Assembly (NCBI GenBank): GCA_964187785.1
Contig: OZ076409.1
Coordinates: 77,626,001-77,690,000 of the forward strand
Length of the DNA: 64,000 nt
Source of the DNA: Amphiscolops sp. MND2022
Lineage: Eukaryota
Direction of reading: 5' to 3'
The notes beneath the pieces are model-generated. The model saw only the letters and a list, made by a program, of their open reading frames with translations, was not told where the DNA came from and made no database searches. Below, in pieces: positions 726 to 38,757 of this stretch. Every line of letters starts with the position of its first letter. Positions within the stretch are counted from its first letter, which is position 1. Position numbers and translations under genes: made by a program.

Positions 726-3255
726 TAGACTCTTTAGACGCTCGTTGGCTTTGGGACCTTGTTTTTGGTCTTTTCGGGTGATTTGAGGAATCGGTTAAGA
801 CTCCTGTCACCATGTTACGACTTACGTTCGTATCGTTGTTTTGGGTAGAATTAATTCTAACTGATTTTGTAGGGGTGTAGAAACTCCTCGTTTCATTCTC
901 CGTTTCTTCTTCGACATTTTCTCTTACGTTTTCTCTTGTTTCAGGTTTAAGAAGCCTTAGCATTTCCCTTTCAGACTCTACAAGGAAATTCTTGATTTCG
1001 GAAGTAATCTCTTCTTTTAAAGAAGCCTTAGACGTTCCAAGAAACTGTCTTCAATTCTGGTGGATTTTGGTTTAGACGGTCCCGCAACACTTACGTCCGG
1101 GTCTAAAGGACAAAAAGTTTCCACTACAACTGGTGAAAGAAAACCTTCACTTACACTTTCAATAGCTTCTTGTTTGTTGTTTCTTCTCTTTTGGCTTCTT
1201 GTAGTCGACATTTTGATGAAAAAAGATTTGTTTCAGATGAATTCAATTTATCTTCTGAGTATTTTTCAACAAAGTTGAATGATGTTAATTGAGAAAGAAT
1301 TAACAAGGTATAGAGCAACTAATTTTCGCAATTAGAAAAGACTGAGTCCCTTGATCAACAAAATGCATCGAATTTATATCCCCCTAGCATCATTTGATCA
1401 CAACTACGTTCCTAATATCCTTCAAACAAGTAGTCATTTTCTGTTTTTTCGGTGAAAAAATCATTATGTTCCCAAATTTGAGTCGACATTTTGTCAAATT
1501 TTGAGACACGGCAATCTTAATCTAGTATTAGTCATCAACCGTGATCATATCATTTCATTCCGGCGTCCTTTTGCTTCCTCCCAAGCAGGAAGTAGATATT
1601 ACCTTAGTCTGTCAAACCGGAAATATCGTTGAGAAGAGCACCTGTTCACATTTTCTACCATATCTATAAATCTAAATATAAAAAGTTGAATTATGTGTCA
1701 AATAAAACAAATAAAAATGATTTCAAGGTCACTTTAGTTAGTTGAATGTATGTTCTAACTAAATTAATGCTTTAAACAGATAGATAAAACAACGTGCTAA
1801 GTGGAGGTAATATCCATAGTCCTATTCACAGTGATTAGGAATTGCGCTGTCTGATTGGTTACCGTAGTCTGGGGACCACCCTTCAACTGAGTCCAGCTTT
1901 GGAAAACTATATTGTATTAAAATATATTGACAATAAACAAAGAAAATGTATTAATTTTTAGTTTTGTACAATACAATATATTCATCCCAGTGTAAAAAAC
2001 TTTAGCAAATCTTGATAAGAATGTAGGATATTCCTGGATTTCTTGGTAAGAATCTTGCCAAGAGTCTTACCAAGAAGTCCACGAATTTGCAAGATCTTGC
2101 AAGATCGTGCCAAGAAATTCAAGAGATGAACTGACAAAAGTGAATGAAAACAATTAAAAACTGACCCCAATAGCAGCTTGACCAGCGTACTTATTATGCC
2201 GCAGCTTTACGCGCTACCAACCAAGCTATCACGCTCTGAAATTCACTACACTTTCTGTTGTCCTATATCCAATACTTCAAAGAATGATAGTGTAGCTGGT
2301 AGTGCGAACACAGAAAAATACTTGTAAACAAAATTTTATATATATATATATATGAATAGACTCTTTAGACGCTCGTTGGCTTTGGGACCTTGTTTTTGGT
2401 CTTTTCGGGTGATTTGAGGAATCGGTTAAGACTCCTGTCACCATGTTACGACTTACGTTCGTATCGTTGTTTTGGGTAGAATTAATTCTAACTGATTTTG
2501 TAGGGGTGTAGAAACTCCTCGTTTCATTCTCCGTTTCTTCTTCGACATTTTCTCTTACGTTTTCTCTTGTTTCAGGTTTAAGAAGCCTTAGCATTTCCCT
2601 TTCAGACTCTACAAGGAAATTCTTGATTTCGGAAGTAATCTCTTCTTTTAAAGAAGCCTTAGACGTTCCAAGAAACTGTCTTCAATTCTGGTGGATTTTG
2701 GTTTAGACGGTCCCGCAACACTTACGTCCGGGTCTAAAGGACAAAAAGTTTCCACTACAACTGGTGAAAGAAAACCTTCACTTACACTTTTAATAGCTTC
2801 TTGTTTGTTGTTTCTTCTCTTTTGGCTTCTTGTAGTCGACATTTTGATGAAAAAAGATTTGTTTCAGATGAATTCAATTTATCTTCTGAGTATTTTTCAA
2901 CAAAGTTGAATGATGTTAATTGAGAAAGAATTAACAAGGTATAGAGCAACTAATTTTCGCAATTAGAAAAGACTGAGTCCCTTGATCAACAAAATGCATC
3001 GTATTTATATCCCTTTAGCATCATTTGATCACAACTACGTTCCTAATATCCTTCAAACAAGTAGTCATTTTCTGTTTTTGCGGTGAAAAAATCATTATGT
3101 TCCCAAATTTGAGTCGACATTTTGTCAAATTTTGAGACACGGCAATCTTAATCTAGTATTAGTCATCAACCGTGATCATATCATTTCATTCCGGCGTCCT
3201 TTTGCTTCCTCCCAAGCAGGAAGTAGATATTACCTTAGTCTGTCAAACCGGAAAT
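1..3255. repeat. Near-identical ~1.63-1.67 kb tandem duplication (flank + (TA)n + gag fragment/PBS + part of family-1 LTR)
   Basis: TAAATCTAAATATAAAAAGTTG at 1 recurs at 1667. The ORF track is duplicated (610-963 vs 2277-2594; 1017-1211 vs 2648-2842). Copy 1 breaks off at GTCAAACCGGAAAT ~1624, while copy 2 continues into the full LTR. Confidence 0.92.
670..722. repeat. (TA)n microsatellite; shorter copy at ~2337-2353
   Basis: Perfect TA dinucleotide run. It marks the point where the gag fragment downstream of the PBS is cut off. Confidence 0.97.
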
Positions 3256-4768
3256 GTTTCCCTGTTTTTCTGCTTTGGTTTGTAGGAAAATTGACGCGGA
3301 GATGACCCTGACGTGAACAACTAATACCTGATTTTGAAATTCAACTTGAGAAATTATGACTAATTATCATGATTCAGGCAATTTGATGATGCTAAGAGAG
3401 TAAAAGGGATCAGATTTCCGTTAACTGTAAAAGGGATCAGATTTCCGTTAACTGTATTTAATTTAACAAATTAGCACGCATAGTCCCTATTTTTAAATAG
3501 GTAAAATCATAGTCAAACGTATTGATAACGTCAAATTAGGTCAGCTTCAACAATAACGTCAAACAGTAACAGCAACTCCAAACGATAATACACTTGGTTA
3601 AAGTCCTAAATATGTAATCGCAACAACACTAGATAAAAGCGTATCAAAATACAAATGCAGCACTATAAAAATATGGTTCCATCTCCAGAATATTAAAGCA
3701 TTGAATTTCTTTGGGACTTTAAGACGACGTTTGTTTGTATGAAATAGCGCCAGGAGTTTACATTGAGTATTACAAAATACACATTTATGAAGTGTTCTTC
3801 GGAATAAACTGTGACTTCTATCTTGAATGATATGGGAAAGTTCCATTCAAACTATATCTTAATAATAATATCTCAGTTGGAAATTTAGTTGACGGCAGTC
3901 GGATGTTATCTCGAATGTCTTTTCCTTCTATCCTAATTTTGATCGAATCTATAACTGCATGACGCTCCCAAGCCTAGACCATTAAAAACAGCGTTTACTT
4001 CATCATTCTAGTTGGATCAAATCGGTTATTTCGATAGATTGTGGACCTAACGTGGACGTACGTATTAGTATTAGCCTTAGTCCACCAGTACACAAGACGT
4101 AGCGTGGACGTAAATTTGGAATGAAAATCAGTTGTCTACCATCGCTGTGACGTCATATTGGCGGAAAGCTGGAATGATTTCTAATAAGGACAGTAATATA
4201 GGCGGATAAATCTCTAGTGAGCATAGTGACGTCAATTGGTATACCTTCAAATCTTATCTGCGTCTTACTGACGACAAATGTACATGTATCCTTGTTTCTA
4301 CCGCCGCCTTGTTTACTTAACGCAATATTGTCGTCCTAAACCACACTAATTGCTGTTCAAAGTGCAATTAAGCTGCCTTTCTTAGAAAAGGCTCAATTTC
4401 CTCGGCGTGATATCTCAATGTAATTTCTGTTTTAGATCTGATTGATGTTCTTTTGGAAATTATTTTGGATTTGTTTTCATTTAGAATAGCTTATGATCTC
4501 CTTACTTTAAAACGTGTATTAATTTAGTTTTCAGGTGACGAATGTTACTATTTTGACGTGACTGAAACGTCTTGCCGGAAATTATTTTAGTTCATTTTAC
4601 TTTCTATTTTCATTTTCGTTTGAGATTTGCGCAATGCGGACATATATTTTGCATTCCTAGTCACAGTTTATTTTAAATTCAAGTTTAAAGTTTTTAGTTA
4701 ATAACCGAAATACCATCTTGGGAAACGTAGGCTGCAGCAACATCCCAGACCGGGAGCGGGCTGTGACA
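2444..4768 (-). repeat. 3' LTR of element A (2325 bp)
   Basis: On the minus strand it begins TGTCACAGCCCGCTCCCGG (element B: TGTCACGACCCGCTCCCGG) and ends AGTCGTAACA. It is preceded by purine-rich GAGGAGTGGCCC and matches 16161-17526. Confidence 0.88.
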
Positions 4769-8800: not shown

Positions 8801-10065
8801 ATTGTACTTTCAAAAAACAGCGGGCAGCTCGGACAGATTACGGGTTCCATTGTTACATGGAGTTGTGTCAGTTTGTCTTCTGTTTGCTTTCTCGAAGTCG
8901 TAAGATAAGCGCCATGCCAAATATGAACGACTGGGATGCCTATATGAGCGTAGAAAAAAGTTGCCAGCATCGATAAAGTGAGCACCGATGACTTTTTGAC
9001 TTCCCACGAGTTTGGTGAAGAACTGCGACGTTGTGGGACTGAAAGTGCTCGAGAGTTTCTGAACCGGAGCCGTGAGTTTATCGATCGTTTGGTAGACCTC
9101 ATCTTGGAGTTTCTTCTGGTATCGGCTGATTTACTGCAGGGCGTTTATGCTTTCTGCCCCGAGCTTATGTTGGAAGGTGACAACCAGAGTGTTTTTCAAT
9201 TTTTCAGCAAATTATTGCGTGAATTTGAGCGAAGTGGAAGTTTGTCATCAGAGGTTGATAATGCCAGTTCCGAAGAGTTTACGACGTACGTCATTGCTGT
9301 CCGAGCTCGTCATTGTGATTCTGGGGCTCTTGCTGAGGAAATATCTGATGTGGTTCAGTATCTTCTGAACGACTATTGTTTTGCTGCTCGACGTCACTTG
9401 TGCCAGGTATTGAAACTGTGCTGCCTGGTGTTGGACAGACCTCATTCTGCTCCTCCGCGAGTCATGATCGATTTGTCTGGATGTAAGGTGTCTCCGATTG
9501 TCATTTCGTCCGCGTTATCTTGTGTAAAGAGTTATGTGTTGTCGTCGAGTTATCAGCAAGGGGCATTTTTTACTCAAGCTACTATGGTTGCCGTTCGAGG
9601 TGCTTTATCCGATACACGCAGTTTTATGTCAGATGCAGATTTTGATCCATGGTCTGCTATTTAGATTACTGATCGGAATATTTTTGTCTCTCGTTACTCT
9701 GTTCTGTTCGAGAAGTATCTTGCCAAGAAGAAGAAGGAAGTCGATTCATAAATTTATGAGTCTAATCGCCGTAGTCGGCAGTCTGGTACTTCTGCAGTAC
9801 GATCTGGCTCCGGCAAGTCTCAGTCAGGCGCTGAGGCTAGTGCTGCTGAATCTGTTGTAGCGTCTTCATGTGATCCGTCTAGTTGCGTTGCGTCAGTGGT
9901 TTCTGGATCTGGGGAGGAAAACGGAAGAAGGTGCGTGACAGCTTATCCACATTGCTTGGCCAGAAGAGATCTGAAAAGGAAGTCGGTGGGTCTGCGTTAA
10001 AGACTGTAGTTAAGCGGAAAGGAGGAATTTCAAAGAAGTCGGGAGGTAGTCAGAAATCGAAATAA
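5880..10065 (+). pseudogene. Antisense, intron-containing zinc-finger protein gene carried by element A (frameshifted)
   Basis: Exon-by-exon similarity to 27625-31455 of B. GT-AG introns at 7615-7706, 8328-8483 and 8566-8797, plus an acceptor TTGCAG at 7024. Motif FYCTICQRDVSIESKG...H. Lys-rich C-terminus. AATAAA at ~10219. Confidence 0.8.
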
Positions 10066-15128: not shown

Positions 15129-16509
15129 GATTCATCTCCAAATTTAGCTGTCGATTGTTGGGCGGAATTTCGTTCTTGTTGGAAGTGTTGCTTAGGCCTC
15201 GGATCGATGGCCGAGTTGGCTCTATTCCAACAATCTTCCGTTTTATGAGGTTTGCCGCAAGTTTCGCATTTGACCGTGGTGCCTGTACTATTTTTGGTTT
15301 GCTCGTTGTTTCTCCGTGTCTGTTGCCCTTTATCTCGTCTCATTTTTCGACATTCTGCTTTGAAGTGGCCGAATTTATTGCAGTAACACAGTATCTTTTT
15401 TTGGTATTGTGAGTAGTAGTTTGAGCAATAATTTAAGCTGATTTGACTTCAGGTTTTGTTTGAGCAGGTTCTATTTTATTTAAAGGGACCAAGGTGACCT
15501 CGTCTGGTGCTCCAAGGCCATCGAGTCGCATCTCTCTTTCCAAGTGGAGCACGATGTCGTTGTACAGTTTGTCTTCGAGGTATGCCCTGTTAAATATCTT
15601 CTTAAGGTGATCGGGCATCTTGGCATATGTTGCCTTTTCGATGAATTGTTGGGCCTCTGATCTGAAGGCTTCCTTGGCGGTTTTTTGGAGGACGTCCAAA
15701 CATTTGTGTAATTTTTGTGTGGAGGGATCAAATCTAAGTGCGTCCCATTCGCATCTGTCTTTTGCCATTGATAAGTAGTCGCCAAAACGGCGTTTGAAAA
15801 TCGTCATGATTTCCCCTAACGAGTCTTTTTTCGAATGTTCTATGTTGCAAAACGCTTGTAGTGCATATCCACGGAGTAGGGAATGAAAGTATTTTGTTTT
15901 TTGGAGTTCCGTGAGGAGTGGGTACATGATGTTGTTGCGGAAAAGATCCTCAAAAAGTTCGAAGTTTTCGAATTTCCCGTCAAACGTTGGGAGTGATGCC
16001 GTTACGGCTTTTGGCATAGGTAGCAAGTGGTTGTCGTTCTTTTCCGCTCCAAAAAGTGTTCTGGCTACCACAGGACGCTCTTTAGACGCTGTTTGGCTTC
16101 GGGACCTTATTTTTGATCTTTTCGGGTAATTTGAGGAATCGGTTAAGACTCCTGTCACCATGTTACGACTTACGTTCGTATCGTTGTTTTAGGTAAAATT
16201 AATTCTAACTGATTTTGTAGGAGTGTAGAAACTTCACGTTAGTGTAAGAAGCCTTATCATTTCCCTTTGAGACTCTACTAGGCGATTCTTGATTTCGGAA
16301 GTATTCTCTTCTTTCAAAGACGCTCCTAAACTTTCCAAGAAACTGCCTTCAATTCTGGTGGATTTTGAATTAGACGGTCCCGCAACACTTACGTCCCGGT
16401 CTAAAGGACAAGAATTTTCCACTACAACTGGTGAAACAAAACCTTCACTTACACTTTCAATAGCTTCTTGTTGGTTGTTTCTTCTCTTTTGGCTTCTTTT
16501 AGTCGACAT
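15119..16509 (-). pseudogene. gag: gag of element A, starting inside the 5' LTR
   Basis: MSTKRSQKRR start at 16509, LPTFDGK capsid-like motif, Zn knuckle CETCGKPHKTEDC, ends ESKN* at 15119. Homologous to the 20072 ORF. Confidence 0.88.
16146..16160 (-). promoter_or_regulatory. Primer-binding site of element A
   Basis: TGGTGACAGGAGTCT directly abuts the LTR end ...TAACA. It resembles tRNA-Leu-type PBSs (TGGTGTCAGGAGT); the primer tRNA is not verified. Confidence 0.8.
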
Positions 16510-17526
16510 TTTGATGAAGAAAGATTTATTTCAGATGAATTCGATATATCTTCTGAGTATTTTTCAACAAAGTTGAATGAGGTTAAATGAGAAAAAATGA
16601 ACAAGTTTTTGAGCAACTAATTTTCGCAACTAGAAAAGACTGAGTCTCTTGATCAACAAAATGCATCGTAGTTATACCCTCCTAGCATCATTTGATCACA
16701 ACTATGTTCCTAATTTCTTTCAAACAATTAATCAATTCTCGTTTTTTCGGTGAAAAAATCATTATGCTCCCAAATTTGTGTCAACATTTCGTCAAATTTT
16801 AAGGCACGGCAATCTTAATCTAGAATTAGTCATCAACCATGATCATATCATTTCATTCCGGCGTCTTTTGCTTCCTCCCAAGGAGGAAGTAGATATTACT
16901 TCAGTCTGTCAAACCGGAAATGTTTCCCTGTTTTTGTGCTTTGGTTCGTAGGAAAATTGACGCAGAGATGACGCTGACGTGAACAACTAATACCTGATTT
17001 TGAATTTCAACTTGAGAAATTATGACCAATTATCATGATTTAGCCAGTTTGATGATGCTAAGAGAACTAAAGGGATCAGATTTTCGTTAACTCTATTTTT
17101 TTAAACAAATTAGCACGCATAGTCCCTTTTGTTAATGAGGTAAAATCATAGTCAAACGTATTGATAACGTCAAATTAGGTAAGCTTCAACAAAAACGTCA
17201 AACAGTAACAGCAATTCCAAACGATAATAGACTTTGTTAAAATCCAAAATGTATTTTCTGTTTTAGATCTGATTGATGTTCTTTTGGAGATGATTTTGGA
17301 TATGTTTTCATTTAGATTAGCTTATGATTTCTTTACTTTAAAACGTGTTTTAATTTTGTTTTCAGGTGACGAATGTTACTATTTTGACGTGACTGAAACG
17401 TCTTGCCGGAAATGCGTGAAAATTATTTTAGTTCATTTTACTTTCTGTTTTCATTCTCGTTTGAGAGTTGCGCAAAGCGGACGTATATTTTGCATTCCTA
17501 GTCACAGTTTATCTTAAATTCAAGTT
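16161..17526 (-). repeat. 5' LTR of element A (internal ~0.8 kb segment missing; cut by gap)
   Basis: Aligns to 2444-~3610, jumps to ~4418-4686, then runs into the N gap. Confidence 0.85.
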
Positions 17527-17726
17527 NNNNNNNNNNNNNNNNNNNNNNNNNNNNNNNNNNNNNNNNNNNNNNNNNNNNNNNNNNNNNNNNNNNNNNNNNN
17601 NNNNNNNNNNNNNNNNNNNNNNNNNNNNNNNNNNNNNNNNNNNNNNNNNNNNNNNNNNNNNNNNNNNNNNNNNNNNNNNNNNNNNNNNNNNNNNNNNNNN
17701 NNNNNNNNNNNNNNNNNNNNNNNNNN
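17527..17726. other. Assembly gap (200 N)
   Basis: Run of N. Confidence 1.
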
Positions 17727-18098
17727 CATCACTCGTTGTTAAACCATTTCATTCCCGCGTGGCATCTTTTCCCACAGACAGGAATTAGATTTTACTTTGC
17801 GTCTGCAAAAAAAGTTTTGAGAACCCTTTCAATAATTCAGCAACTTGCAAACCACCAAAGTTTCCGGCAACTAACATTCATCATCAGTGACAACGCAATG
17901 CCGAAGAATAATTATAGAGAGATGTAAAGGTATTTACATGAGAGAGAGGTTTTTTCATGCATTTTTGCAGGAGAAACATATCAACATTGTTATCAAGTTC
18001 AACTAATGGGTTGAAAGTATCACAAAAGATATAAAAACGTCAAAAATGTTCATAAGGTATGAAAAAAAATCAGAAAAATCATTTTTCACAAAAATGGC

Positions 18099-20450
18099 TG
18101 TCACGACCCGCTCCCGGTCGTAATTTTACTTGCTGCTCTGGAATACCTGGATTCGGCAGAGAACATGGACAAAGGCAGAGTAAATACCTTTAAACTTTGT
18201 TAAACTAATCAAATTCTACTTACAGTACAGTTAAATAAGTGCGAATAACTTTCCAAATACGGAATTCAACGTATGCGTTACGGAAGATTTCCAGAAATGA
18301 CTTTAAACTAGCTAAAACTTCCGGTCTAATGTTTTCACACACAACACCGTTTTACTTCCGGTTTTATCTTCTGAGTTTTGCCACTCCAATCTAAATATTA
18401 AAACAATTTTGCAGACGGGATCGTTTTGGCGCTCCACACTTAAATAAAAACACAGAATCGACATTTAACTCCGAGATCTCAACGGAGTCCATAAGATCTA
18501 AAATGAAAGAACATACAAAAATAGAGTGGAAATGTATTCCAAAACAAGAGTAGTTGTTAAATATCCACTTAAAACCGTAGTCAAGTGATTTTAAGCAAAC
18601 GTTTACAATGTAATGACATCGTCACTCAACTAGGCAAGCAACGGGCGCTCCTATTTTCACGGGCCAATAGCGTCACTCGTTGGCAGAATTATCTGAGTTA
18701 ATACCAATAGATTTACGCTTGGTTGCCCTTAGCAACGCTTACTAGCTAAGAAAAGAGAATAGAATTGCTTACGCTCTCCGTTTTCACTCCGCCTGCTGCT
18801 GCTGCTCAGCTATAAGCAACCTTAATACATGCGGAACGCTTACGGAGCAAATTGTAAAATTGTATTCCGCCGCTCAGCTATACCTAATCTTGATACGTAC
18901 GGAACATCTACGGAGCGAATTATAAAATCGCAAATGAGAAATACTGGTCCAAACGAAATCAAAATGAAGCTTTTCTAAATCGATTCGCTTGAAAGATTTA
19001 AGAGTTAAGATTCTAATATAAGGAAAACTGTACTGTAAGGAAGGATGATAGAAATTACAATGGTATTTTTATGTTTTGGATTTGTATCATCATGGTAAAT
19101 CACTAAATCGCGTTGACATTATGCTTTGTTTAGTACTTCCTTAATGGAACAAATCTACTTGGTTTACTATGGCAATTAAAATATCTTTATAATAATCCTA
19201 ATGCAAGACGTAAAGTCAACGCTAATTCCTTATTTTCAAGCCAGTAGTAACGGCTGTATTTTGTGGTAACAACAATCAGGCTAATGACCAAACTATGATT
19301 ATGTTCTGACAAATTTTACGGTCATCATGTAAAATGTTGAAGTTGCTTTCCATTTGATATTACAAATATGTTGCGCTCATCTAGTTAGCAGTATAACCAT
19401 TGTTACATTCCGTTAAAGTCCCGTTTGGACTTAATTTGTGTTCAAAATGAATGATGTAGTATGTCATTAGCAGATAATTCATATGTTTGAATTTGGGATT
19501 ACCGTTTCAGCATCGTTTGTTCTTTCATACCAAATTTCCATATTTTTCTTCCGCTTCCAAGTTAACTCATTTCGTATTGATTACGTCGCCATTTTTGAGT
19601 GTCATTCTTTTACTTCGAACTTCAATTTCCTAACTTGAACGCTGACTAATTGATCACGCCGGCGTGCCTACGCTGATGAAAATGTCAGCTAGACTTCTAT
19701 TTTGCCGCAATTTTGAAGCTCAAACAGGAAATGAATCGCTTGAACAAAAATGATTTCAACCAAGTTTTACGGAACACTGACGCAACTAGGAATTTTGATA
19801 CCTGATTTTACGACGCGGAACTGAAATAATATGAATCATTAGCGCGTTTTGTTGAACGAACCCGATTTTTGTGATACCTAGGAATTTTTAGGTGAGGAAC
19901 AAATGATGCTGGGAAGGTATAAATATGTAAAACATACATGTAAATCAGTTAGTTTTTAACCGTCTTTGTAACAATTAGTTCTGTTCCGTTATCATAACGT
20001 GTTCAAAAGAAAACTTAAACCTTTGAAGAATTCAACTTTTCCAAAGATACTTTCTCTCTCTCTCGACCGAAATGACAACCAGAAGCCAGAAAAGGAAAGC
20101 TGTAGCCGAGTTAATCTCTGGTGATTTTGAAACCTCTGTAACCGAAAACTTTACGTCTGAAACCCTTGTAGCTAGTTCTAGCAAAAGTCCTAGGATAGAG
20201 CCAGAAGGTTTGGCTGAGATAAAAACGTCACTAAGAAAGGAGATTATGTCTGATCTGTCTAAAATACTTGCGGAAAACCAAAAGGAAATGCTTAAACTGA
20301 TAGCACCTTTAAACAAGAAACAAACAGTCCACATGAATGTTCAAGACTCAGACTCTGAACCAGAGAATGTTTCCGTACCAAGGACGTCTACCCCCGTCAA
20401 AACTCATATAGCGACTAACTCTAAAACAACTCCGGTTAAAAGTCCTAACA
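18099..20450 (+). repeat. 5' LTR of element B (2352 bp)
   Basis: Direct repeat of 33412-35788 with TG...CA ends, followed immediately by a TGG PBS. Confidence 0.95.
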
Positions 20451-21480
20451 TGGTGACAGGAGTCCTCAATGACTCTACCAACCAACCCACGAAAAGATCG
20501 AAACAACAACGCGCATCCAATGAGCAAACACAAGACCATCCTTCCACATCTAAAATACTGTTCGCGCCACAACCGCAAACATTTCCAGCTACCAACCTAC
20601 TTCCGATGCCGAAAGCACTCATTGCTTTGCTTCCAGTCTTCGATGGTAAGTCCGAAAAGTTTGAACTTTTTGAGGACCTATTCCGAAATAATATCAAAAT
20701 GTACCCTCACCTAACCGAGATACAAAAGATCAACTACTTCCATTTACTCCTACGCGGAAACGCGCCACAAGCGTATTGTAATCTAGATGACGCTAAAAAA
20801 GACAACCTAGAAGAAGTCATAACGGCATTCAAACGTCGCTTTGGCGATTTCCAATCATCTGCTAAAGCGAGATGCGAGTGGGATGCGCTGCATTTTGACC
20901 CCACTAAACAGAAACTCCATGAGTTCCTTGACGCCCTGCAAAAAACTGCAAAAGAAGCATTCGGCTCAGAAGTACAAAGATTCATTGATAAAGCAATCTA
21001 CGCCAAAATGCCGGACCACGTCAAGAAGATCCTCAACAGAGCATATTTGGAAGATAAGCACTACAATGACATAGCTTTGCATCTTGAGAGGGAAATGAGG
21101 TTAAACGGAATAGGTGCGCCCGACGAAACAACCCTAGTCCCACTCAACACAGTGGACGCCGTAGTGACGGACGATAAAAAAGACCAACAACAACGAGGTC
21201 ATTGCTTTCACTGTGGCAAATATGGCCACTATAAAGCACAGTGTCGCAGACTTCAACGAGAGCGTTACAATATCGCCAGAACAACCACAAAAGACCCAGC
21301 CCAAAACGAAGTACCCAAAACCAAGTGTGATACATGTGGCAAGATGCACAAAACTGAGAACTGCTGGATAGAGCCAATGCAGCAAATGACCCCAGAAGGA
21401 AGAAACGAGAATTCACCATTCAAACCAACAAAATCAGTGAACAACCCGTACCCACACTGTCCTCCCAGCCAAAAAACTGA
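20072..21480 (+). CDS. gag: gag of element B (starts in the LTR; probable 1-nt lesion near 21367; native stop TGA 21478-21480)
   Basis: LPVFDGK motif and two Zn knuckles, CFHCGKYGHYKAQC and CDTCGKMHKTENC. Comparison with A (CWNRANSAIDP...KN*) places the true end at PKN*. Confidence 0.85.
20451..20465 (+). promoter_or_regulatory. Primer-binding site of element B
   Basis: TGGTGACAGGAGTCC directly follows the LTR terminal CA. It is absent after the 3' LTR. Confidence 0.85.
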
Positions 21481-21547: not shown

Positions 21548-22896
21548 AGGTCTAAGAAAGATTTTTTAACCGAATGTAATGAAGAACCAACTCAAGACTG
21601 GCAACGCCGTTGGAACGTAGGCATGATTCTCAGACATAACGCCAGACACCCAGAAGAACCAACGCCACTACCCCAGTCGATAACGGAGTCGCCCGATAAC
21701 TATGCGACACTCAAAAGACCGTTGCCGGAATCAAAAACAGAACGAATTTATATATACGACAGAGACTGCAGGTGTGACCCCTGGGATGAACCAACTATCT
21801 ATGATACAAATAAACTAGCCTTCAAAATCCAAGTCTCAAACCATCAAGCTCAATCTACGGAGATCACAAACCTACCATCACCACTGTCACCGATCCTGAA
21901 AAGAACAACACCATCCCCAACAGTACCCGTCACCATCACGTCCACACCGATAGACGCAGAGAATATCATCTGCATTGAAGATAAAACAATATGGGCACAA
22001 CAGGAAAGAAGAAAACGAGAGAATGCCGACCCTCCAGCAACCCCTCCAAAAACCGCGCCCGTCACAGCACCGACGAACGACGACGTAGAAATCACGGAAT
22101 GTCCCTCAAAACTGCCTGAAGATCTGGATGCCATCAAAGAATTCATCCAACATGACAAAGACGACGACTACTTTCCGCTAATGTCTGCCATCGCTACCAA
22201 TCGAATTCAACATAGTCAAAATCGACGCCCTAGTCGACTCAGGTGCGTACATTAACGCTATTAGTGAAAGGGACGCCGAAAAACTCCGACAGCACGCTAA
22301 CCAGTGCATCGTCAATAAGGCACCCCCACCCCCTTTCAAAGTGCAGTATGCCAATGCGAATTAGAACAACCACTCGCCACGTACACCCTACGTTTCAAAA
22401 TAGGGGATTACACCTTTGAAGAAACATTCATCATCATGAATCAAACGTCATTCTCCATAATCGGACTAGCGTTCCTACGTAAACACGCCGCAATTCTCGA
22501 CACTGCACAAGTAACCATCGACTTCCCTAAGATCCAAATCACGATGGCACTCACAGATGAGAGACAAAAGTGCAATCCCAAGCCCATCACAATAAAGACC
22601 GAAGCCAAGCACACAATTCCAGCGCACTCTACCCGAATCATTTACGCAACAATCCCTGTGAGCACAGAACACTCAATAACTGGCACAATACAACCCTTAC
22701 CACAATTTGACGAATGCGCAAAAGTAATAGTAGCCCCAGCAATCACAACATCCAGAGATAAAAAGATACCAATTAAAATCGCCAATACCACGGATTTCCC
22801 ATACACAATAGCCACCGACACCAAAATGGCCGAACTACAAATCCTAAAACCCGAAGAAACGAAGATGATCCGCCCAGTTGACATAGCCGCCCTGAA

Positions 22897-23636
22897 CATT
22901 ACGATACATATCCCCGCAAGCAAGTTCCCAGATCTTGCGACTTGCAATAATAACCAATCACAGTGAGTTATTACGATGTTGACTGTTTTACACTTTTCTC
23001 TTATTACACCAAGTGATAATTAGTTACACTGAATGACTAAAATTCACTAATTGACTGGTTTACACTATTTTCCGGTCCATAAATTTACACTAATTGACTG
23101 AATTACGCACTGATGCAGTACTACGCACTTTGACTAAATTACGCGATTTTCCACTACGCATTTTGATTGAATTACGCCGTCTTACTAACGCCGGTACGTA
23201 TGCGTTAATTGTTTAATCGCGTAATTCAGTCAAAGTTAATGCGTAATTTAGTCAAAGTATTTAAACTCCAAGCAACTATCCAATGTAAATTTATGTGTTT
23301 GAAGCAATTATTAGATTGCCGTAAACTAGTCAAACTTTGACTACTTTACACTTTTCGGTAGTTTAGTAAATGAATACCTCATTAAAAGTGGAATTTAATC
23401 AAACTTTGACTGAATAACACCTTACTAAATTAGCTTGTAAATTTTGACTGTTTTACACTATTTACTAACTACGCATTTTGACTGGAATTCACCGCGTTCA
23501 TATTACACTGTGCTGCACCACTACACGAGTGGATTACTACAGTCTTTGACCAACTTACAGTAATTGACTATTTTACCCAAAATACTATTTACACCAAGTG
23601 ATCACTTTCCACTTTTGCGGGACATGTATCGTAATG
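22897..23636. mobile_element. Non-autonomous DNA transposon (CACTA/EnSpm-like MITE, 740 bp) inserted in pol of B
   Basis: TIRs CATTACGATACATATCCCCGCAA / TTGCGGGACATGTATCGTAATG, 2-bp AA duplication, and many internal TTGACT..TTAC(A/G)C repeats in both orientations. Removing it restores DIAALNLLTD. Confidence 0.85.
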
Positions 23637-26600
23637 AATCTTCTCACTGACCATGACGATGTGGTCACGTACATTAGTGCACTAATGCAAGTAGAGCGGC
23701 CCAAAGATAATGAAGAGAAATTCTGGTTCCCGACTCCAGAACACCCAGGCAACGAACAAGAACATTCGCCCATACAAAAGCGAATCTTGAAAGAACTACG
23801 ACACCTTGCCCAACTAGAAAAACTTGATCCAACCGAAAAGGAAGAGTCTCGCAACAAATTCCTATCCATGTTCAAATGGACAGATTCACTGATCGCGGGC
23901 AAAGACCGTGAAAACCTTGAGGACACCATTGTCGAATTCAACGACATCTTCGCTCGACACCGACTAGACATCGGGATGAACACACAATTCAAAGTTAGCC
24001 TAACACCACAAGACGGTAAACCAGTCTACACACAAAGCCTACCAGTCCCCATCAACCTCAAAGAAGATCTAACTGTGGAACTGGCCCTCATGCACCGATA
24101 CGGTATCATCACGACACTCCCCTTCTCCAAGTACGCCAGCCCCATATTTGCACAACGGAAACCCAACGGCAAGCTGAGACTACTGGTGGATCTGCGCAAA
24201 ATCAACGCACTCATAGCAGATGACTACATCAACAACAACCACCCTGTCAGCACCCTCTCAGACGCGGCACAACACCTAGCAGGGAAAAAACTATTTTGCA
24301 ATCTTGACTGCTCCCAGGCGTACCACTGCCTCCAAATGGCAAATCAAAGGTCAGTAGAATTACTTGCTTTCAATTTTGCTAGTAGGACGTTCGCCTACCG
24401 TCGCCTGGCACAAGGACTAAGCAGAGCTCTATCAGCCTTTTCGAGCTTTATGCGTGAGTATCTGGATTCAGTCATCAAAGCAGACCAATGTGCACAATAC
24501 GTAGATGACATTGGCATCGCCGCAAATACAACGGAATAGCTCATAAAGAACATCAGAGCAGTTTTCAAGTGCATTAGAGAGGCAGGACTAAAACTAACCT
24601 TTGAAAAATGTCACTTTGGAGTAACCCAAATTGAATTTCTTGGCCGAACCATCACCTGACGGAGTGGCCCCGCAAGACCAAAAAGTCAAAAGTTTCCTCT
24701 CCAAAGTTCGCTTCCCCAAATCCAAAAAACAAGTTCAAAAATACATTGGCTTTGTTAACTATTACCGCAATTACATACCGCGCTTGTCAGAAAAAGTCAT
24801 TGGCATGTACGAACTTCTCAAAGCAGACTCCAAAATCAGAATTTCAGAAGAACTTGTCGATAACATTAAAGAAATTAACGCCAATTTAGCGGAAGCTTGT
24901 GGAATCGCACTCAGACAGCCCAAAGCAGGGAAACAATACGTTCTAATGACGGATGCAAGCTTTCGTGCATCAGGCTACGCCCTCATGATCGAGGAGAACG
25001 ACGAACGCAAAATACTCTCCAAACGGAAAACTTTCGCACCAGTAGCGTTCGGATCACGAGTTTTCTCACCTGCACAACTGAAAATGTCCATCTACTGCAA
25101 GGAATTCTTAGCAATCTACCACGCCTTCCTCGAATACAGCCACATACTATGGGAAACAACAATTCCAACGCTGGTCTTAACAGACAACCGCTCAGTAACT
25201 AGATTCTTCCAGACGAAAACGACACCTCCTGCACTCTGGAATGCCTGTGACTACGTACTACAATTCAAGTTCCGAATTATGCACGTAGCAGGCTCCCAGA
25301 ACACGGCAGCAGATTTTCTCTCAAGACTTGAACAAACACCGAAAGAAAAGGTACAACTTAAACTACGAGACGACATCCTAACGTCCCCAATTGAGGTTAA
25401 TCTACAATCATCAGATGTAGCTGACGAGGAACAACTTTTCTTTCTACCAGACGAAGAAGATGAATATGAACAAGAAATTTTTGCCCGAAGAGCACTCAGC
25501 AAGCGACGTGCCCTAGACGAACATGAGAGAGAACTATCAACAAAAGTAACCGAAGTCATCAAGATACCACTCAACTCAGCAGTCTACTCCTTCGGTGCAA
25601 TTAAGGAAAATGCACGGATCAGAAACGAACAAGATGCAGACCCTCTCCTCAAAGCACTGAAACAACGGATCTCACACGAAGATTATGACAAACACCTCCT
25701 CAAAACTGAACCACGAGGACGAAACCTATTACGCCACGAAGAAAGAATCATAATGAAAGATGGAGTCCTGATGCGAAAGTACTACGGAGAAGACGGATCA
25801 GTCACCCATAACCAAATCATAATTCCAAAACACCTCGATCCAGAACTCTTGTCTACTCTACATGGGAAAACAAATAAACACCCAGGAATTACCAAAATGA
25901 TACAAGAATGCAGAGCGAAATACTACTTCCCGGGTCTTGCACGCAAAATCAGAGCTTGAGTAACCAGTTGTCAGGATTGCATTACCAATAAAAGAATCGA
26001 CACGACACAGATACGTCCCAAAATGCTAAGCAACACTGAATTCACAATGGGACGACAAGACTGTCTAGAAGTAGACATCCTTCCGAATCTACCTTCCTCA
26101 AATGGATACCAACACATCATAACGATGATGGATGTTTTTTCGCGTTACCTTTTCGCTTACCCGACACTGGATATGACAGCAAAAACAGTCGCACGATGCA
26201 TAATAGACGTCATGACACGACACTGCTACCTACCGACCGTCATTCTAACGGATAAAGGATCACAATTCAGGTCAGAAAAAGTCAACCAAATAGCACAAAC
26301 ACTGGATATACGGATAAGCCACGCGTCGACGAAACACGCTCAAACGATTGGCATCCTAGAAAGGACTCATGCCTCTTTGAAAACCTCCCTAAAGATATCA
26401 ACGGGAGAAAGACGCTCTCTGTGGCACAAATACGTCCAGATTGCAGTCATGAATTACAATACAAGCTACCATGAAGGCCTAGGTTGTGAACCTACAACAG
26501 TGTTTCACGGACGCATTCCGTACAATATTTTGGACATAAAACTTGGATTGAAACCTAACTGGGAAAAAGATAGCATCGAAGAACTAACGGCCCAACTACA

Positions 26601-27087
26601 GAAACAAATAGCCGAAATACAACAAGCTGCCAAAGAGAACCTAATGCAGTCTTACCTCAAATACAAACAGTATTATGACAAGAAAGCAACGGCTACACCG
26701 CTCAAAGTCAACGACTACTGCTACGTCCTTAATCCGAAGGCAGACAATCAGTCAATGAACTTCGCCTTTAAAGATTGCATTTGGACTGGACCCTACATAG
26801 TAGTCAAAGTACTCTCGAACAACAACTACGTCGTACGTCGCACAGGAACTAGGTATACTCAAACCCTCCATAGAATTCGCCTAAGGCTATATGCGCCCAA
26901 TCAGCGAGTACCTGACGTAACAGTCAGAAGGGAAGATTACCTTCCAGATCCAGAGGTTAAAACAACCCACAATGATTGGTACGCGCAAGCTTGGGAAACC
27001 GAATTCGGAGAAGTTCTGTTCGGAAACAATACGGAAAACGCCGCCGAAGAAGCTACAGTTATAGAAATCGCAGACACAACAGGAAAC

Positions 27088-27222
27088 GACGAAATTACAA
27101 CGGAAAATGATGTGGTTAAAACAATCACAAACGAAATTACAGCGGAAAATGACGTGGTTAAAACAACCACAAGCGAAGATATAACGGAAAATGACGTGGC
27201 TCAAACAGCCACAAATGAAAAT
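27088..27222 (+). repeat. ~42-bp coding tandem repeat (x3) in the integrase C-terminal tail
   Basis: EITTENDVVKTITN / EITAENDVVKTTTS / EDITENDVAQTATN. Confidence 0.75.
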
Positions 27223-27624
27223 ACTGCAGAAGATAAAACACCCTCCGACAATATAACGTCATTTAACTTGGACGTCAGCGACAACCCCTATATTTTTACA
27301 CCGCCGCCTATAGAAAGCCCTCCCAAAACACCCGAACTAACGCCAATAGTCATTGGATATAATCCTAGAAAAGTGGGCCGATACAATTTGAGACCTAATC
27401 CGAGACCCAAAGTGGATCCTGACTTCAGAATGCTAGACTCAGCTACTACGGAAAATCTGAGTCAAACTCAAAACTAAATGAAAACGATCAACAGGCTAAA
27501 CCGAACCGGAGTAGCTACGTAAAAGTATCATCTAAACTAAAAGGAGCATCAACAAAGCCAAAATTATCGCTCCTTCAGAATCATCAAAACATAACAAAAG
27601 TCTACAAAATTGTCACAACACAAG

Positions 27625-30600
27625 TTATTTGGCGTGATGATATACGAGAGGATCAGTATCTTTCTTCGACTTCTTCTTCGGAGTCGTCTTACTACCACCA
27701 GCTTGCACATTAGATTTTTTCGATTTCCCGACTTGCTTCACATCAGTGCTCTTCTCACCAACTTTACTTCCACCACTTTTCCCTTTTCCACTAGTAGAAC
27801 TGGAACTACTCTGCACAACGGAACTGCTACGAGACCCCTGCTCTGCACGAGACAAACGATTGACCCGATTACACTCAGTATAATGCTCATCTTTGGATTG
27901 TCGTCGCTTTGCTAAAAATTCCTTATACAGCTCGCAAAAAGCCGCAATAAATGAGTTCACGCCAGAATCACACAGATCTTTCCACACATTAAAATCAGAG
28001 CCAATATAGAAGAGCCCAGCATCAGAAACAGCATCTCGAATTAGGCCCATCGTCGACTCAGTAAACAATGACTGCGGAGAATAACCGTCACTCAAAACAT
28101 AGGATTGGACAACCCTGCAGCACAAAAGCACACTCCCTTCAACCTGCTTACAGCCAGCCAGATCAAGAGTAAATGGAGGACTAACACGATTGGGCTCACC
28201 AACGAGCAGGCAACATAACTTGAAGACACGCATTACATGTCGTCGTGATTGAAACCCAAAATCATCCAGCAAATAACGACGAACGTCCGAAATAGAACTG
28301 GCAGAACGCTCCAATTGACTATGATGCCTGCGTTTCTCAATCACGTATGCGCTGTATTCATCCACAGCGGCATTGCATTCTTCTCGGGATAAAGCGCCGC
28401 ACCTCATCAGATCATCACACAGCTCAGAGAACAAATCAAACGCACACTTATCGTCACCTTCTAACATCAGTTCAGGGCAAAAACTGCACAGACCTTTCGA
28501 CACAACGGAACGGGTGCCAGCGCTCTCTACTAACAAGAAGGCGAGACGATCGACAAATTCTCTACAGCGACCACGAAACTTTGGCATTTCACTCGACTTT
28601 GAGGATAGAAGAGACTTCCCATACTCACAGTGGGCCAAGAATTCCTCCACAGGTGCAACAGGGAAACTTGCCGCCTTTTCCACGTTCATGTACGCATCCC
28701 AAACGTGAATATCTGGGAGACTTGACAACTGGCGTGGCTTCATCAACAAGCAGTATATGAAATTGCACAATTCGCCAAAGCCATGGAACGCATAATCGCT
28801 GCGGCTCTGTCTCAATTTCGGCAAATGAATATGGAAAGTATCCAGCATCAATTGCAACAGTCCAAAACGATACGGCATCAGTCCGTCCGAGATCACAGTT
28901 GAATCCATCCCTCTCAACTAAACAACAACACACAATAATCAAGCAGACGGGAAATAATAGATGATTAACAAAACGACCCTGAAGAACCCTTCACAAAAAA
29001 AAATCATGCAACAAACTTACACTATTGGCTTGATCCTTCACATGAGGCAACCCAGTACACCGAATGAACAGACGAATTGAAGGCCACAGATCCACCAAAT
29101 CAGTCAGAACCTCACGAAGATCCTGGAAGGCAACGAAACCTTGACGAATGGCCTCACGCAGCAACACCTTGCCGTCTGTCCAGTCCTTATAGACAGCGCT
29201 CTTCAGTCTTAAAATGACATAGTTCATCAAACATCTTGATGTGCCTGACGCACACACTGCAGGAACACCTCTCCGGAAAACTGTTGATGCATAACAAACC
29301 GCTTCCCATCAGAACGATTGTCCTCTATCCCTCTATCACTAGAAGCAGCACCGGACTAGCGCCGCTAATACAAAAGGGAAGACGCGCATTTTGCACACCG
29401 TGGACGAACTGCGCCAAAGGAACCAACTCAGATTTGGGCATAGGCTGATCCAAAACTTCCTGACCAATACAGATTTTCCGTAGAGCAGTGTCCAACCAGC
29501 ACACAACAAAGCACCGTTCCACATCCGCGTCCTTCTCATAAAACAATGCGTATTCATTGCGTGTCCCGACCGCATTGAGAACCAGACGCAACACCCGAGG
29601 AGCAAGACCACGACACAGCAAGGACTGAAACAATACGCAACTACCATGACTACAAAATCGTACTATTACAGATCCCCCCCCAAAAAAAACAAAATGAGAC
29701 AAAGAGAGAAAACAAAGAGCTCATAAACCCAAAGGCCACACAAAATATGTAATATTCCTACTTACCACCGTCTCAGTACGACTCCAACTCAGCTGATATT
29801 CAGGCGCTCTCTCACCCAAAGAAGCACGAAAACACGCCCATAAACGTCGTAACAATGTGAAGTCGCCGCCACTCCGGAGCCACTCACAGACAGATGAGAT
29901 TATCGTCATAAATGGGACCTTCGAATCAACTTGAGCATGCTTGGGTACCAAATCTTCCGGAAAAGGGAACCCCTCTGCTAAGTCCACAAAAAGTTGAGCT
30001 TTATACTCCGCAATCTGGTCGGCAGTTAGTTCCATAGGCTCTAACCACCTATTGTATACGGGCAACCCCGAATGCACCCTGTAGCGCACATCACGAAACC
30101 AGTGTCCATCAGATGAGAAGTGACGTTTAAACTCGCCAGATCCTTGAGCTTTCATCCGCACATCTCGGTGGCACACTCGACAGAAGAAAAACGTAGGCTC
30201 CCCGCACTTAGGGCCACTGACGAAGTCGGAATATGCAGGATGCAGGGACAACATGCGTCTTTTTAAATGCTTGCGATTTCCATAAGTCCTAACTCAACGC
30301 TGACAACGATCTCCAATCTTCTCAGACAATTTCGTAAAACCTGCAAACAATAACAAAACCATCTATTAACACGATACATAATACTAAAACTCCAAGGCCC
30401 CAACCAAACCTAAAGAACCCCCCATTCACTATGAGATACCAACGTACATGTCTCGATACTTTGTACTGCCCGAGTCTCTACCTCCGAAATCAGATGACGA
30501 CCAAACTGCGCCAAATCAATGGGACTCAACGGAGTATTGCCGGGGAAAGCTAACACCTCCCCCTCCTCCGCTTCTTTGTCACCTATAACAAGCACCAAAT

Positions 30601-32866: not shown

Positions 32867-33400
32867 ACAGGAAGAGTCACGTTCAATCTGCCGTCAGCCG
32901 ACTCCGACACGGACTACTATGAAGAGCCAGACTCCCTGCAACGCCTACCTTCCCCAATATAACGTACTCCTGTCCTAAAGGAGACGGAAAATATCCCTGT
33001 TCTGGGAAATGAAAGAATGCCAAACACGGGAAAATTGAACGACTTGAATGAGCCTTCCTTGGCGGAATTGGAAGCTCTGTACGGCCTGGACTTAGAGGAC
33101 CAAAATTACCTCGCATCCGTAGGCCGTGGACGCGGGCGACACGCAACAAATATAAATCAGCCGCACTTAAAAGAAAATCTGTGTCCTAACATCATAATTA
33201 GACCCTCCGAGTGTTGTCCGGAGGAAGTAGAACGACTAGAGAAGGAAGTCTGTGAGTTGGACGAAGAAGAAAGGAAAATTAGGGACATGAAGGCTGGAAG
33301 AGGACGTGGCCCCCTCCAATCAAGAAAATACAATGGTCGCCCCCCGTGACAATAAAGAAAAAATCCCGCACTGCCACGCTTTACCCCTGTCACTCTCATC

Positions 33401-33411
33401 AAGAGGGGCCC
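33401..33411 (+). promoter_or_regulatory. Polypurine tract of element B
   Basis: AAGAGGGGCCC immediately precedes the 3' LTR TGTCAC. Confidence 0.7.
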
Positions 33412-35788
33412 TGTCACGACCCGCTCACGGTCGTAATTTTACTTGCTGCTCTGGAATACCGGGATTCGGCAGAGGACATGGACAAAGGCAGAGTAAATAC
33501 CTTTAAACTTTGTTAAACTAATCAAATTCTACTTACAGTACAGTTAAATAAGTGCGAATAATTTTTCAAATACGGAATTCAACGTATGCGTTACGGAAGA
33601 TTTTCAGAAATGACTTTAAACTAGCTAAAACTTCCGCTCTAATGTTTTCACACACAACACCGTTTTACTTCCGGTTTTATCTTCTGAGTTTTTCCATTCC
33701 AATCTAAATATTAAAACATTTTTGCAGACGGGATCGTTTTGGCGCTCCACACTTAAACAAAAACACAGAATCGACATTTAACTCCGAGATCCCAACAGAG
33801 TCCATAAGTTCTAAAATGAAAGAACATACAAAAATAGAGTGGAAATGTATTCCAAAATTAGAGTAGTTGTTAAATATCCACTTAAAACCGTAGTCAAGTG
33901 ATTTTAAGCAAATGTTTACAACGTAATGACAGCGTCACTCAACTAGGCAAGCAACGGGCGCTCCTATTTTCACGGGTCAATAGCGTCACTCGTTGGCAGA
34001 ATTATCTGAGTTAATACCAATAGATTTACGCTTGGTTGCCCTTGGCAACGCTTACTAGCTAAGAAAAGAGAAGAGAATCGCCTACGCTCTCCGTTTTCAC
34101 TCCGCCTGCTGCTGCTGCTGCTCAGCTATAAGCAACCTTAATACATACGGAACGCTTACGGAGCAAATTGTAAAATTGTATTCCGCCGCTCAGCTATACC
34201 TAATCTTGATACGTACGGAACATCTACGGAGCGAATTACAAAATCGCAAATGAGAAATACTGGTCCAAACGAAATCCAAATGAAGCTTTTCTAAATCGAT
34301 GCGCTTGAAAGATTTAAGAGTTAAGATTCTAATATAAGGAAAACTGTACTGTAAGGAAGGTTGATAGAAATTACAATGTAATTTTTATGTTTTGGATTTG
34401 TATCATCATGGTAAATCACTAAATCGCGTTGACATTATGCTTTATTTAGTACTTCCTTAATGGAACAAATCTACTTGGTTTACTATGGCAACTAAAATAT
34501 CTTAATAATAATCCTAATGCAAGACGTAAAGTCAACGCTAATTCCTTATTTTCAAGCCAGTAGTAACGGCTGTATTTTGTGATAACAACAATCAGGCTAA
34601 TGACCAAACTATGATTCTGTGTTCTGACTATCCAAACTATGTTCTGACAAACTTTACGGTCATCATGCAAAATGTTGAAGTTGCTTTCCATTTGATATTA
34701 CAAATATGTTTCGCTCATCTAATTAGCAGTATAACCATTGTTACATTCCGTTAAAGTCCCGTTTGGACTTAATTTGTGTTCAATATGAATGATGTAGTAT
34801 GTCATTAGCAGATAATTCATATGTTTGAATTTGGGCTTACCGTTTCAGCATCGTTTGTTCTTTTATACCAAATTTCCATATTTTTCTTCCGCTTCCAAGT
34901 TAACTCATTTCGTATTGATTCCGTCGCCATTTATGAGTGTCATTCTTTTACTTCGAACTTCAGTTTCCTAACTTGAACGCTGACTAATTGATCACGCCGG
35001 CGTGCCTACGCTGATGAAAATGTCAGCTAGACTTCTATTTTGCCGCAATTTTGAAGCTCAAACAGGAAATGAATCGCCTGAACAAAAATGATTTCAACGA
35101 AGTTTTACGGAACACTGACTCAACTAGGAATTTGGATACCTGATTTTACGACGCGGGACTGAAATAATATGAATCATTAGCGCTTTTTGTTGAACGAACC
35201 CGATTTTTGTGATACCTAGGAATTTTTAGGTGAGGAACAAATAATGCTGGGAAGGTATAAATATGTAAAACATACATGTAAATCAGTTAGTTTTTAACCT
35301 GCTTTGTAACAATTAGTTCTGTTCCGTTATCATAACGTGTTCAAAAGAAAACTTAAATCTTTGAAGAATTCAACTTTTCCAAAGATACTTTCTCTCTCTC
35401 TCGACCGAAATGACAACCAGAAGCCAGAAAAGGAAAGCTGTAGCCGAGTTAATCTCTGGTGATTTTGAAACCTCTGTAACCGAAAACTTTCCGCCTGGAA
35501 CCCTTGTAGCTAGTTCTAGCAAAATTCCTAGGATAGAGCCAGAAGGTTTGGCTGAGATAAAAACGTCACTAAGAAAGGAGATTATGTCTGATCTGACTAA
35601 AATACTTGCGGAAAACCAAAAGGAAATGCTTAAACTGATAGCACCTTTAAACAAGAAACAAACAGTCCACATGAATGTTCAAGACTCAGACTCTGAACCA
35701 GAGAATGTTTCCGTAGCAAGGACGTCTACCCCCGTCAAAACTCATATTGCGCCTAACTCTAAAACAACTCCGGTTAATAGTCGTAACA
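33412..35788 (+). repeat. 3' LTR of element B (2377 bp), includes a copy of the gag N-terminus (35410-35788)
   Basis: Direct repeat of 18099-20450 with scattered substitutions and small indels, followed by TSD ATGGC. Confidence 0.95.
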
Positions 35789-36262
35789 ATGGCGTTGTTT
35801 GAAGCCAATATCCAAAATACGTTTTACTTCATAGCTGTATTTCATTCAAAAAGGAACCTTTTGTTCAGTTTCCTTTATGAATTATTTCTCCAAAAATATC
35901 CTTTTACACCAGCTCGGAAAATCCTGACTCAAAAATTAGTTCTCATTTAGTCGTAATCATTTTTGACGCAATGACAACGTAACCTTATATTCTTTCCATG
36001 ACGTACATTCAGACAGGCGCGGCTGCATAAATTTGATGTCAAATCGACGTAATTTGATATCCCAGTTAAGCCTTGACAAGATTGTGAGGTATTTGGATTA
36101 TTATTTGAATTCTGTATGCACGCTAGTAAGCACGTGAAAAGTAAACATTCTGTAAGCATGTGAAAAGGGTGACTATTCAAATCGTAGAATATTCAAACTG
36201 TCGAAAAAATCAAAGCTATTGAAAGCGTCGAAAGAATTCCATAGCAGCGATTATTTTCAGGT

Positions 36263-38755: not shown

Positions 38756-38757
38756 AT

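Follow-up and report, generated by a model that had tools for sequence, protein, structure and literature searches.

The 64,000-nucleotide (nt) stretch of contig OZ076409.1 of Amphiscolops sp. MND2022 analysed here (the window; 38% GC) contains several long terminal repeat (LTR) retrotransposons. In one of them, termed element B, the gag frame opens inside the 5' LTR and runs uninterrupted across the LTR end and the primer-binding site (PBS). It is very probable that gag is arranged in this way throughout the Ty3/gypsy clade concerned. Its transcription likely begins at a TATA/initiator (Inr)-like promoter situated about 500 nt upstream of the LTR end and its translation likely at the first ATG, in which case the N-terminal 126 residues of Gag would be encoded by the final 379 nt of the LTR. 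The sequences themselves show the LTR limits, the position of the ATG, the in-frame read-through and the recurrence of this arrangement in numerous copies and in several lineages that are distantly related.

Gag frame across the LTR end of element B

Self-comparison of the window revealed a 2.35-kb direct repeat (18099-20450 and 33412-35788, 96.2% identical). The features that delimit element B and its gag frame are as follows.

18094..18098, plus strand: left target-site duplication (TSD), ATGGC
18099..20450, plus strand: 5' LTR, 2352 nt, with TG...CA ends (TGTCAC...TAACA)
20072..20450, plus strand: 5' portion of gag carried by the LTR, comprising 126 codons and the first base (A) of the junction ATG
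20450..20452, plus strand: in-frame junction ATG, formed by the last A of the LTR and the TG of the PBS, context AACATGG
20451..20464, plus strand: PBS TGGTGACAGGAGTC, Leu-tRNA type, translated M-V-T-G-V, abutting the 5' LTR
20451..21480, plus strand: internal gag with linker, PNMA/Arc-like capsid and a pair of zinc knuckles; in this copy the frame is interrupted near 21370
33400..33411, plus strand: polypurine-tract-like sequence preceding the 3' LTR
33412..35788, plus strand: 3' LTR, 2377 nt
35410..35802, plus strand: copy of the Gag-N open reading frame (ORF) in the 3' LTR, 126 codons and four residues (NGVV) from the flank, then a stop
35789..35793, plus strand: right TSD, ATGGC, the same 5 bp as on the left side

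The gag ATG at 20072 lies 379 nt upstream of the 5' LTR end, and the frame remains open through the LTR end and the PBS, with the junction read as ...AAC A/TG GTG ACA GGA, i.e., ...KSPN/MVTGV. An earlier reading of the window from its letters alone (the sequence-only reading) had described an ORF starting at this distance and passing the junction in frame, and the LTR, TSD and PBS limits together with the ORF reading bear this out. The same reading had correctly composed the junction ATG from the last LTR base and the PBS, and its observation that the 126 codons recur in the 3' LTR and enter the flanking DNA also holds, with only NGVV being added there.

The remaining part of the 5' LTR carries 7.7-8.8 stops per 126 codons in each frame, and its longest open runs reach 42-59 codons. 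Because about eight stops per 126 codons are found elsewhere in the same LTR, the open frame of 126 codons is not attributable to chance. Downstream of the junction, the 727-aa ORF of element B tracks the 469-aa family Gag up to residue 432 and then switches frame near 21370; the 727-aa ORF is thus an artefact produced by decay.

Conservation of the layout among related Gag proteins

A set of 458 related predicted proteins was assembled from four protein searches. A capsid-start motif was present in 316 of them, the other 142 being fragments and LTR-only ORFs. The junction motif M[VA]T[GE] was located upstream of the capsid start in 276 of the 316, and the exact motif was missing from 40. In most junction-bearing proteins (237 of 276) the start preceded the junction by at least 100 residues; it lay 3-99 residues before the junction in 25 and at the junction itself in 14. 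Among cluster members that had not been ranked, 41 of 49 began at least 100 residues before the junction.

The junction fell at residue 127-128 in family B and 132-134 in family A. In lineages with 43-54% capsid identity it was found at 115, 127, 182-198 and 200-224, which corresponds to 114-223 upstream residues, and the distant lineages share similar basic tips (TTRSQK, TTRKQK, STRRQK, STRQKR) as well as a central helix-like stretch. Loss of the frame among intact copies had been named by the sequence-only reading as a refuting observation; this was not seen, the frame being kept across many copies and distant lineages.

The position of the LTR end can be read from the proteins by two signatures. 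In all 262 proteins (262 of 262) the junction methionine was preceded by one of the residues N, D, Y and H, against a background of 15%; these residues are chemically unlike, yet they are exactly the four specified by xAC codons, as an LTR end of the form xACA demands. In addition, 35 LTR-only ORFs (Gag-N alone) were collected, and in all 30 whose end could be located the next residue was T, I, N, K, R or S, residues that can all be encoded by codons beginning with A (chance 0.43 each). Taken together, the xAC-residue signature and the A-initial continuation fix the LTR end inside the frame.

The Gag-N-alone proteins with unrelated tails are 3' or solo LTRs reading into their flanks. The Gag-N fusions that had been envisaged for every 3' or solo LTR therefore exist as ORFs, with tails that are random and mostly short: four residues in element B and 1-35 residues in 8 cluster members. 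Among the representatives, which are enriched for long tails, they measured 9-87 residues.

The same ORFs bear on the idea that the LTR end has been misplaced, a duplicated gag fragment having been counted into the repeat, with the genuine U5/PBS upstream of 20072. The unusual length of the LTRs (2.35 kb) would agree with this, as would the element A region, which has local duplications and a PBS after the LTR at its downstream end. Against it, the TG...CA termini, the matching 5-bp TSD, the PBS and the purine tract all stand at the assigned ends, no further TGGTG[AT]CAG[GA]AGT site occurs within element B, and the LTR-only ORFs elsewhere end at the same base in 30 of 30 cases. A misplaced end, to which we assign a negligible probability, is refuted by the TSD and the LTR-only ORF ends.

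Some proteins of the set showed unusual arrangements around the junction. In the distant Gag proteins P0237, P0276 and P0232, imperfect versions of the junction peptide occur several times (HVVTG, HMMTE, HMVTG; DMVIG, DMVTG, DMVVG), as might result from a tandem arrangement of LTR-end/PBS sequences. P0140, a 611-aa ORF, carries the LTR-coded Gag-N twice before the junction, joined by an in-frame link of 15 residues, and may have originated from adjacent or partly duplicated LTRs. A metagenome scan for related loci gave 156 pattern matches, none of which was confirmed.

Probable protein character of the LTR-coded segment

The window contains a second element of the same design, element A, on the minus strand, where MSTKRSQKRR starts at 16509 and SRNMVTGVL is read at 16161. 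Three A-type LTR copies are present.

16161..17526, minus strand: 5' LTR of element A, cut by an N gap at 17527-17726; gag ATG at 16509
2444..4768, minus strand: downstream LTR of A type that carries the TATA block and a Gag-N ORF (ATG 2842, frame break near 2672); a PBS comes after it
813..1624, minus strand: third LTR of A type, incomplete and lying within a local duplication (ATG 1211, frame break near 1041); a PBS comes after it

At the DNA level, the LTRs of elements A and B align only at the LTR start (E 0.005) and, weakly, at the TATA block (E 0.19). In contrast, comparison of the two LTR ORFs as proteins gave a local score of 98 versus a maximum of 59 in 1000 shuffles, and the other two frames yielded scores of 23 and 33 with 8-15 stops.

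Conservation within families is concentrated in two parts of the segment, one of which coincides with a predicted structure.

20072..20101, plus strand: basic N-terminal tip MTTRSQKRK, conserved at a mean pairwise identity of 0.94-0.96
20201..20302, plus strand: predicted amphipathic helix, residues 44-77, in the model of the relative P0002; the sole ordered piece of the LTR-coded part

Mean within-family identity was 0.94-0.96 for the first 10 residues, 0.85-0.89 for the helix, 0.63-0.71 for the flanks and 0.95-0.96 for the capsid. In the P0002 model, the helix at 44-77 stands in an otherwise disordered LTR part and is followed by a two-lobed capsid and the knuckles; a three-copy model of helix association scored 0.02, which speaks neither for nor against self-association. 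The capsid fold was matched by Foldseek to PNMA2, BLV and dArc1 (probability 0.91-1.00, E 0.02-0.13). Among profiles, DUF1759 was above the cut-off and Retrotrans_gag and zf-CCHC were weak, while comparison of this Gag with Atlas Gag clusters gave 0.93-0.94. The LTR likely encodes a genuine protein segment with a predicted helix.

Both families retain motifs of the S/T-P-x-K/R kind (KSPR, TPVK, TPTK) in the linker encoded by the LTR (20072-20450; 16162-16509). These motifs resemble proline-directed kinase sites.

Putative promoter and choice of start codon

A TATA/Inr-like block is located about 500 nt upstream of the LTR end, and the arrangement AAATGATGCT-N6-7-TATAAAT is common to elements A and B.

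19918..19925, plus strand: TATA-like TATAAATA in a block common to the element A LTRs, predicted promoter
19945..19950, plus strand: Inr-like TCAGTT, beginning 27 nt downstream of the first TATA base; transcription start site (TSS) predicted near 19947

In all five LTR copies of the window, the first ATG 3' of the Inr-like TCAGT is the gag ATG. This block may serve as the promoter, with a TSS near 19947.

Among the LTR copies of the window, no conserved poly(A) hexamer was found downstream of the TATA block. The LTR-coded segment may consequently belong partly to R and not wholly to U5. The proposal that U5, the attachment (att) site and the PBS are dual-coding can accordingly be retained in part: for the 3' part of the LTR, the att site and the PBS it is well supported at the sequence level by the frame kept across copies and lineages and by the junction codon signature. 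RNA folding of the predicted 5' 614 nt gave z +0.74, no better than shuffles. Pairing of the first bases of the RNA with the LTR end was considered as well and was rejected, being poorly kept in the 3' LTR copy.

The junction ATG raises the possibility that both ATGs are used, a long Gag being made from the LTR ATG and a shorter one from the junction ATG through leaky scanning or a shorter RNA. This would be compatible with translation from the LTR ATG and would refine it; we consider it unlikely, although it is the most credible of the alternatives. The junction ATG is in frame in all lineages, with A at -3 and G at +4, and M127 is invariant or nearly so. A precedent may be seen in the Ty1 truncated Gag restriction factor p22, which appears in titles cited in PMC4974528. 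However, the junction ATG arises automatically where CA abuts TGG, so that its conservation needs no start function, and the five ATGs, in or out of frame, that separate the two starts in element B disfavour simple leaky scanning.

Observations weighing against translation of the LTR-coded segment

Several observations weigh against the interpretation that Gag begins in the LTR, or limit how far it reaches. None of the three A-type LTRs of the window has kept the LTR ORF intact; in the element A 5' LTR it is disrupted ahead of the junction by a deletion as well as by two in-frame stops. The sequence-only reading was right that element A shares the design, but it omitted these stops, the deletion and the frame breaks of the other copies. 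In element B, 10 codons differ between the 5' and 3' LTR ORFs and only one of the differences is synonymous, which is as expected from neutral decay after insertion and gives no support for selection. The context of the junction ATG (AACATGG) is stronger than that of the upstream LTR ATG (GAAATGA).

The comparative data have limits as well. The related proteins are predicted ORFs, and their ranking by score gives an advantage to long ones; they are also copies of roughly 6-8 lineages and not independent cases. DNA was compared for elements A and B only; for the distant lineages the LTR end was deduced from the peptide, by the first of the two signatures. Identity between A and B by codon position was 0.47/0.50/0.33 over 105 LTR codons, compared to 0.78/0.83/0.38 in the capsid, and 18/20/11 of 28 codons matched in the helix. 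The lower identity at position 3 speaks for coding, but the contrast is inflated by protein-guided alignments, which favour positions 1 and 2. The confidence of the helix is modest (pLDDT 56-68 in P0002), none of the Foldseek capsid matches reached E <0.001, and outside the tip and helix the LTR-coded part drifts at the rate of other linkers.

Tests for selection gave a divided result. Private changes, which date from after insertion, were spread fairly evenly over the Gag segments. In family B (49 sequences), shared changes were depleted in tip and helix (11 shared/26 private) versus the flanks (107/65; p=0.0004), but the depletion was not reproduced in family A (36 sequences; p=0.56). Conversely, shared changes were more conservative than private ones in family A (p=0.002) but not in family B (p=0.72). 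The codon-level conservation suggested earlier as a check was therefore recovered in one family per test, and the evidence from selection appears supportive but mixed.

An alternative reading is that Gag starts solely at the junction ATG and that the LTR ORF is an untranslated relic of gag sequence pulled into the LTR. The 14 of 276 junction-bearing proteins that were called from the junction, including the distant-branch representatives P0202 and P0204, speak for such a start, as do the broken LTR parts of the window A copies and a sponge element whose PBS stands at about the annotated reference point, an ambiguous case in the supplement of PMC13524379. We nevertheless hold this to be very improbable. 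An untranslated frame of 126 codons would be expected to contain about eight stops and was found open, length changes are of whole codons in lineages whose third codon positions are saturated, and scanning ribosomes would use the upstream in-frame ATG, the first on the predicted RNA.

Proposed mechanism

In the interpretation preferred here, with translation from the LTR ATG, a capped RNA would begin near 19947 and ribosomes would scan about 125 ATG-free bases to the ATG at 20072. The product would be a Gag of 469-480 aa consisting of the basic tip, the predicted helix, a disordered linker, the capsid and two zinc knuckles. By analogy, the helix may act as a matrix-like or oligomerising segment.

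Starting at the Leu-type primer, reverse transcription would copy the same RNA stretch (about 500 nt) into minus-strand strong-stop DNA, so that the coding segment would be placed in both LTRs at every transposition. The peptide [NDHY]-M-V-T-G may then be understood as a by-product of DNA constraints, namely the att end xACA and the PBS TGGTGACAGG, and this dictated peptide would sit in a tolerant, flexible linker that separates the helix from the capsid. A promoter and a Gag-N ORF ending at the first stop of the flank would thus be present in every 3' or solo LTR, most likely as a by-product.

A more far-reaching proposal is that each LTR of the clade forms a self-contained gene cassette (promoter, start codon, basic tip, oligomerising helix). 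According to this proposal, which must be regarded as speculative and rather improbable, the very numerous 3' and solo LTRs would be transcribed, and the resulting Gag-N peptides, devoid of a capsid, would either assemble together with full Gag and keep copy number down or give rise to new host proteins with flank-derived tails.

Classification of element B and other elements of the window

Element B was identified as a Ty3/gypsy LTR retrotransposon by its LTRs and TSD, the order of its pol domains, the Gag capsid with knuckles, and the PBS and polypurine tract.

22076..27477, plus strand: pol (protease, reverse transcriptase, RNase H, integrase), with frameshifts and an interruption near 22900-23630

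In the Pol of the relative P0345, protease was assigned to residues 47-153, reverse transcriptase to 458-623, RNase H to 693-823 and integrase to 1014-1183, and this order was mapped onto the window. It is the Ty3/gypsy order; the Ty1/copia order, with integrase before reverse transcriptase, does not apply, as the integrase of element B comes after RNase H. The PBS differs from Leu tRNA ends by 2 mismatches in 12 positions (tRNA ends as tabulated in the supplement of PMC13524379), and no tRNA gene was found in the window. With its change of Gag frame and its broken pol, this copy of element B is dead.

A weak dUTPase-like stretch follows the protease (window 22319-22966; residues 187-265, E 0.15 in P0345), and PF00692 was assigned to two Pol relatives, among the matches listed. 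No sense-strand env ORF was found after the pol of element B; the ORFs located there are antisense and have no Pfam match. Antisense ORFs between pol and the 3' LTR were observed in both elements (27625-30293, minus; 7247-9664, plus). Those of A and B are 27-54% identical as proteins and begin with a CxxC...HxxxxH stretch; no Pfam match was obtained for them, and the 427-aa ORF had no Atlas match at 0.9 or higher. They look like a conserved accessory gene, and extra ORFs are known from plant elements (PMC7264820).

In the element A region (730-4768, minus), a PBS also comes after the downstream A-type LTR; then come about 80 nt of gag and an (AT)n run, and positions 1-1624 duplicate 1667-3255 at 97%. 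The LTRs on either side of element A are just 86% identical, which suggests that the arrangement is recombinant, tandem or misassembled.

A separate gypsy-type element, broken in several places, was found at 49159-63765 (minus). F-type fusion-protein-like ORFs are present at 52739-54340, with weak Monjiviricetes_fusion matches (E 0.001-0.009) and more ORFs downstream; these F-type env-like ORFs belong to this element and not to element B, and their presence makes an invertebrate host likely. A relative with 72% DNA identity occupies 38421-48142 (plus) and contains a 2.8-kb tandem duplication (38421-41220/41221-44020) that is 99.6% identical and possibly an assembly artefact.

Significance and comparison with known systems

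The results indicate that the LTR end, the integrase attachment site and the tRNA primer site can lie within a long conserved coding segment across a large Ty3/gypsy clade, beyond a few yeast copia-type elements. Annotation that splits the LTR from the internal part would remove a quarter to a third of these Gags and miscall the start at the junction ATG, and the signature [NDHY]MVTG allows the LTR end to be read from the protein alone. Since solo LTRs would keep the promoter and the Gag-N ORF after recombination, the clade is suited to asking if remnants of this kind act as restriction factors against the family they come from or contribute to the origin of new genes.

No description of gag inside the LTR was found for a tRNA-primed gypsy clade of this size in the literature searched, subscription papers and repeat databases being outside its scope. 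Some Repbase gypsy entries may note a gag start in the LTR, and absence from print is thus not established. The standard layout of invertebrate env-bearing gypsy elements places gag between the LTRs (PMC13524379), and the main text of that source, in which the word "overlap" has no match, makes no mention of an overlap between LTR and gag. Codons that overlap LTRs are mentioned, with no further particulars, in a survey of choanoflagellates (PMC6875170).

In Ty1 of Saccharomyces cerevisiae, about 14 codons lie in the LTR, and no folded LTR-coded element is known there. The PBS of Ty1 lies inside the GAG ORF (PMC4974528), and GAG starts in the LTR, given a 5' untranslated region of just 53 nt (PMC3592414). 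In Tca5 of Candida albicans, the ORF opens at base 382 of the 685-bp left LTR, with about 100 codons in the LTR, and the frame crosses the PBS; its true start is unproven (PMC4139406). The statement that gag normally starts after the PBS describes the standard layout elsewhere, but Ty1 and Tca5 are published exceptions to it, and the present layout is therefore less surprising than the sequence-only reading had assumed.

Element B shares with the Ty1/Tca5 layout a frame that is open from an LTR ATG across the PBS. The resemblance in gag placement does not extend to membership of the Ty1/copia group, to which Ty1 belongs. Tca5 is a fungal Ty1/copia element with a single gag-pol ORF, an initiator-Met primer, low copy number and few solo LTRs (PMC4139406). 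In contrast, the clade of element B has the Ty3/gypsy order, separate gag and pol frames, a Leu-type PBS, an LTR of 2.35 kb, 114-223 upstream residues, very many copies and evidence of conservation across lineages. Its protease-reverse transcriptase-RNase H-integrase order, CCHC knuckles and Leu-type PBS are shared with invertebrate Ty3/gypsy elements (Metaviridae), and the closest fold to its Gag capsid is that of the PNMA2/dArc capsids. The layout is thus known in kind. What appears new here is that the LTR-coded segment is longer (114-223 residues) and contains a conserved predicted helix, and that the elements concerned are of the Ty3/gypsy group and present in high copy number.

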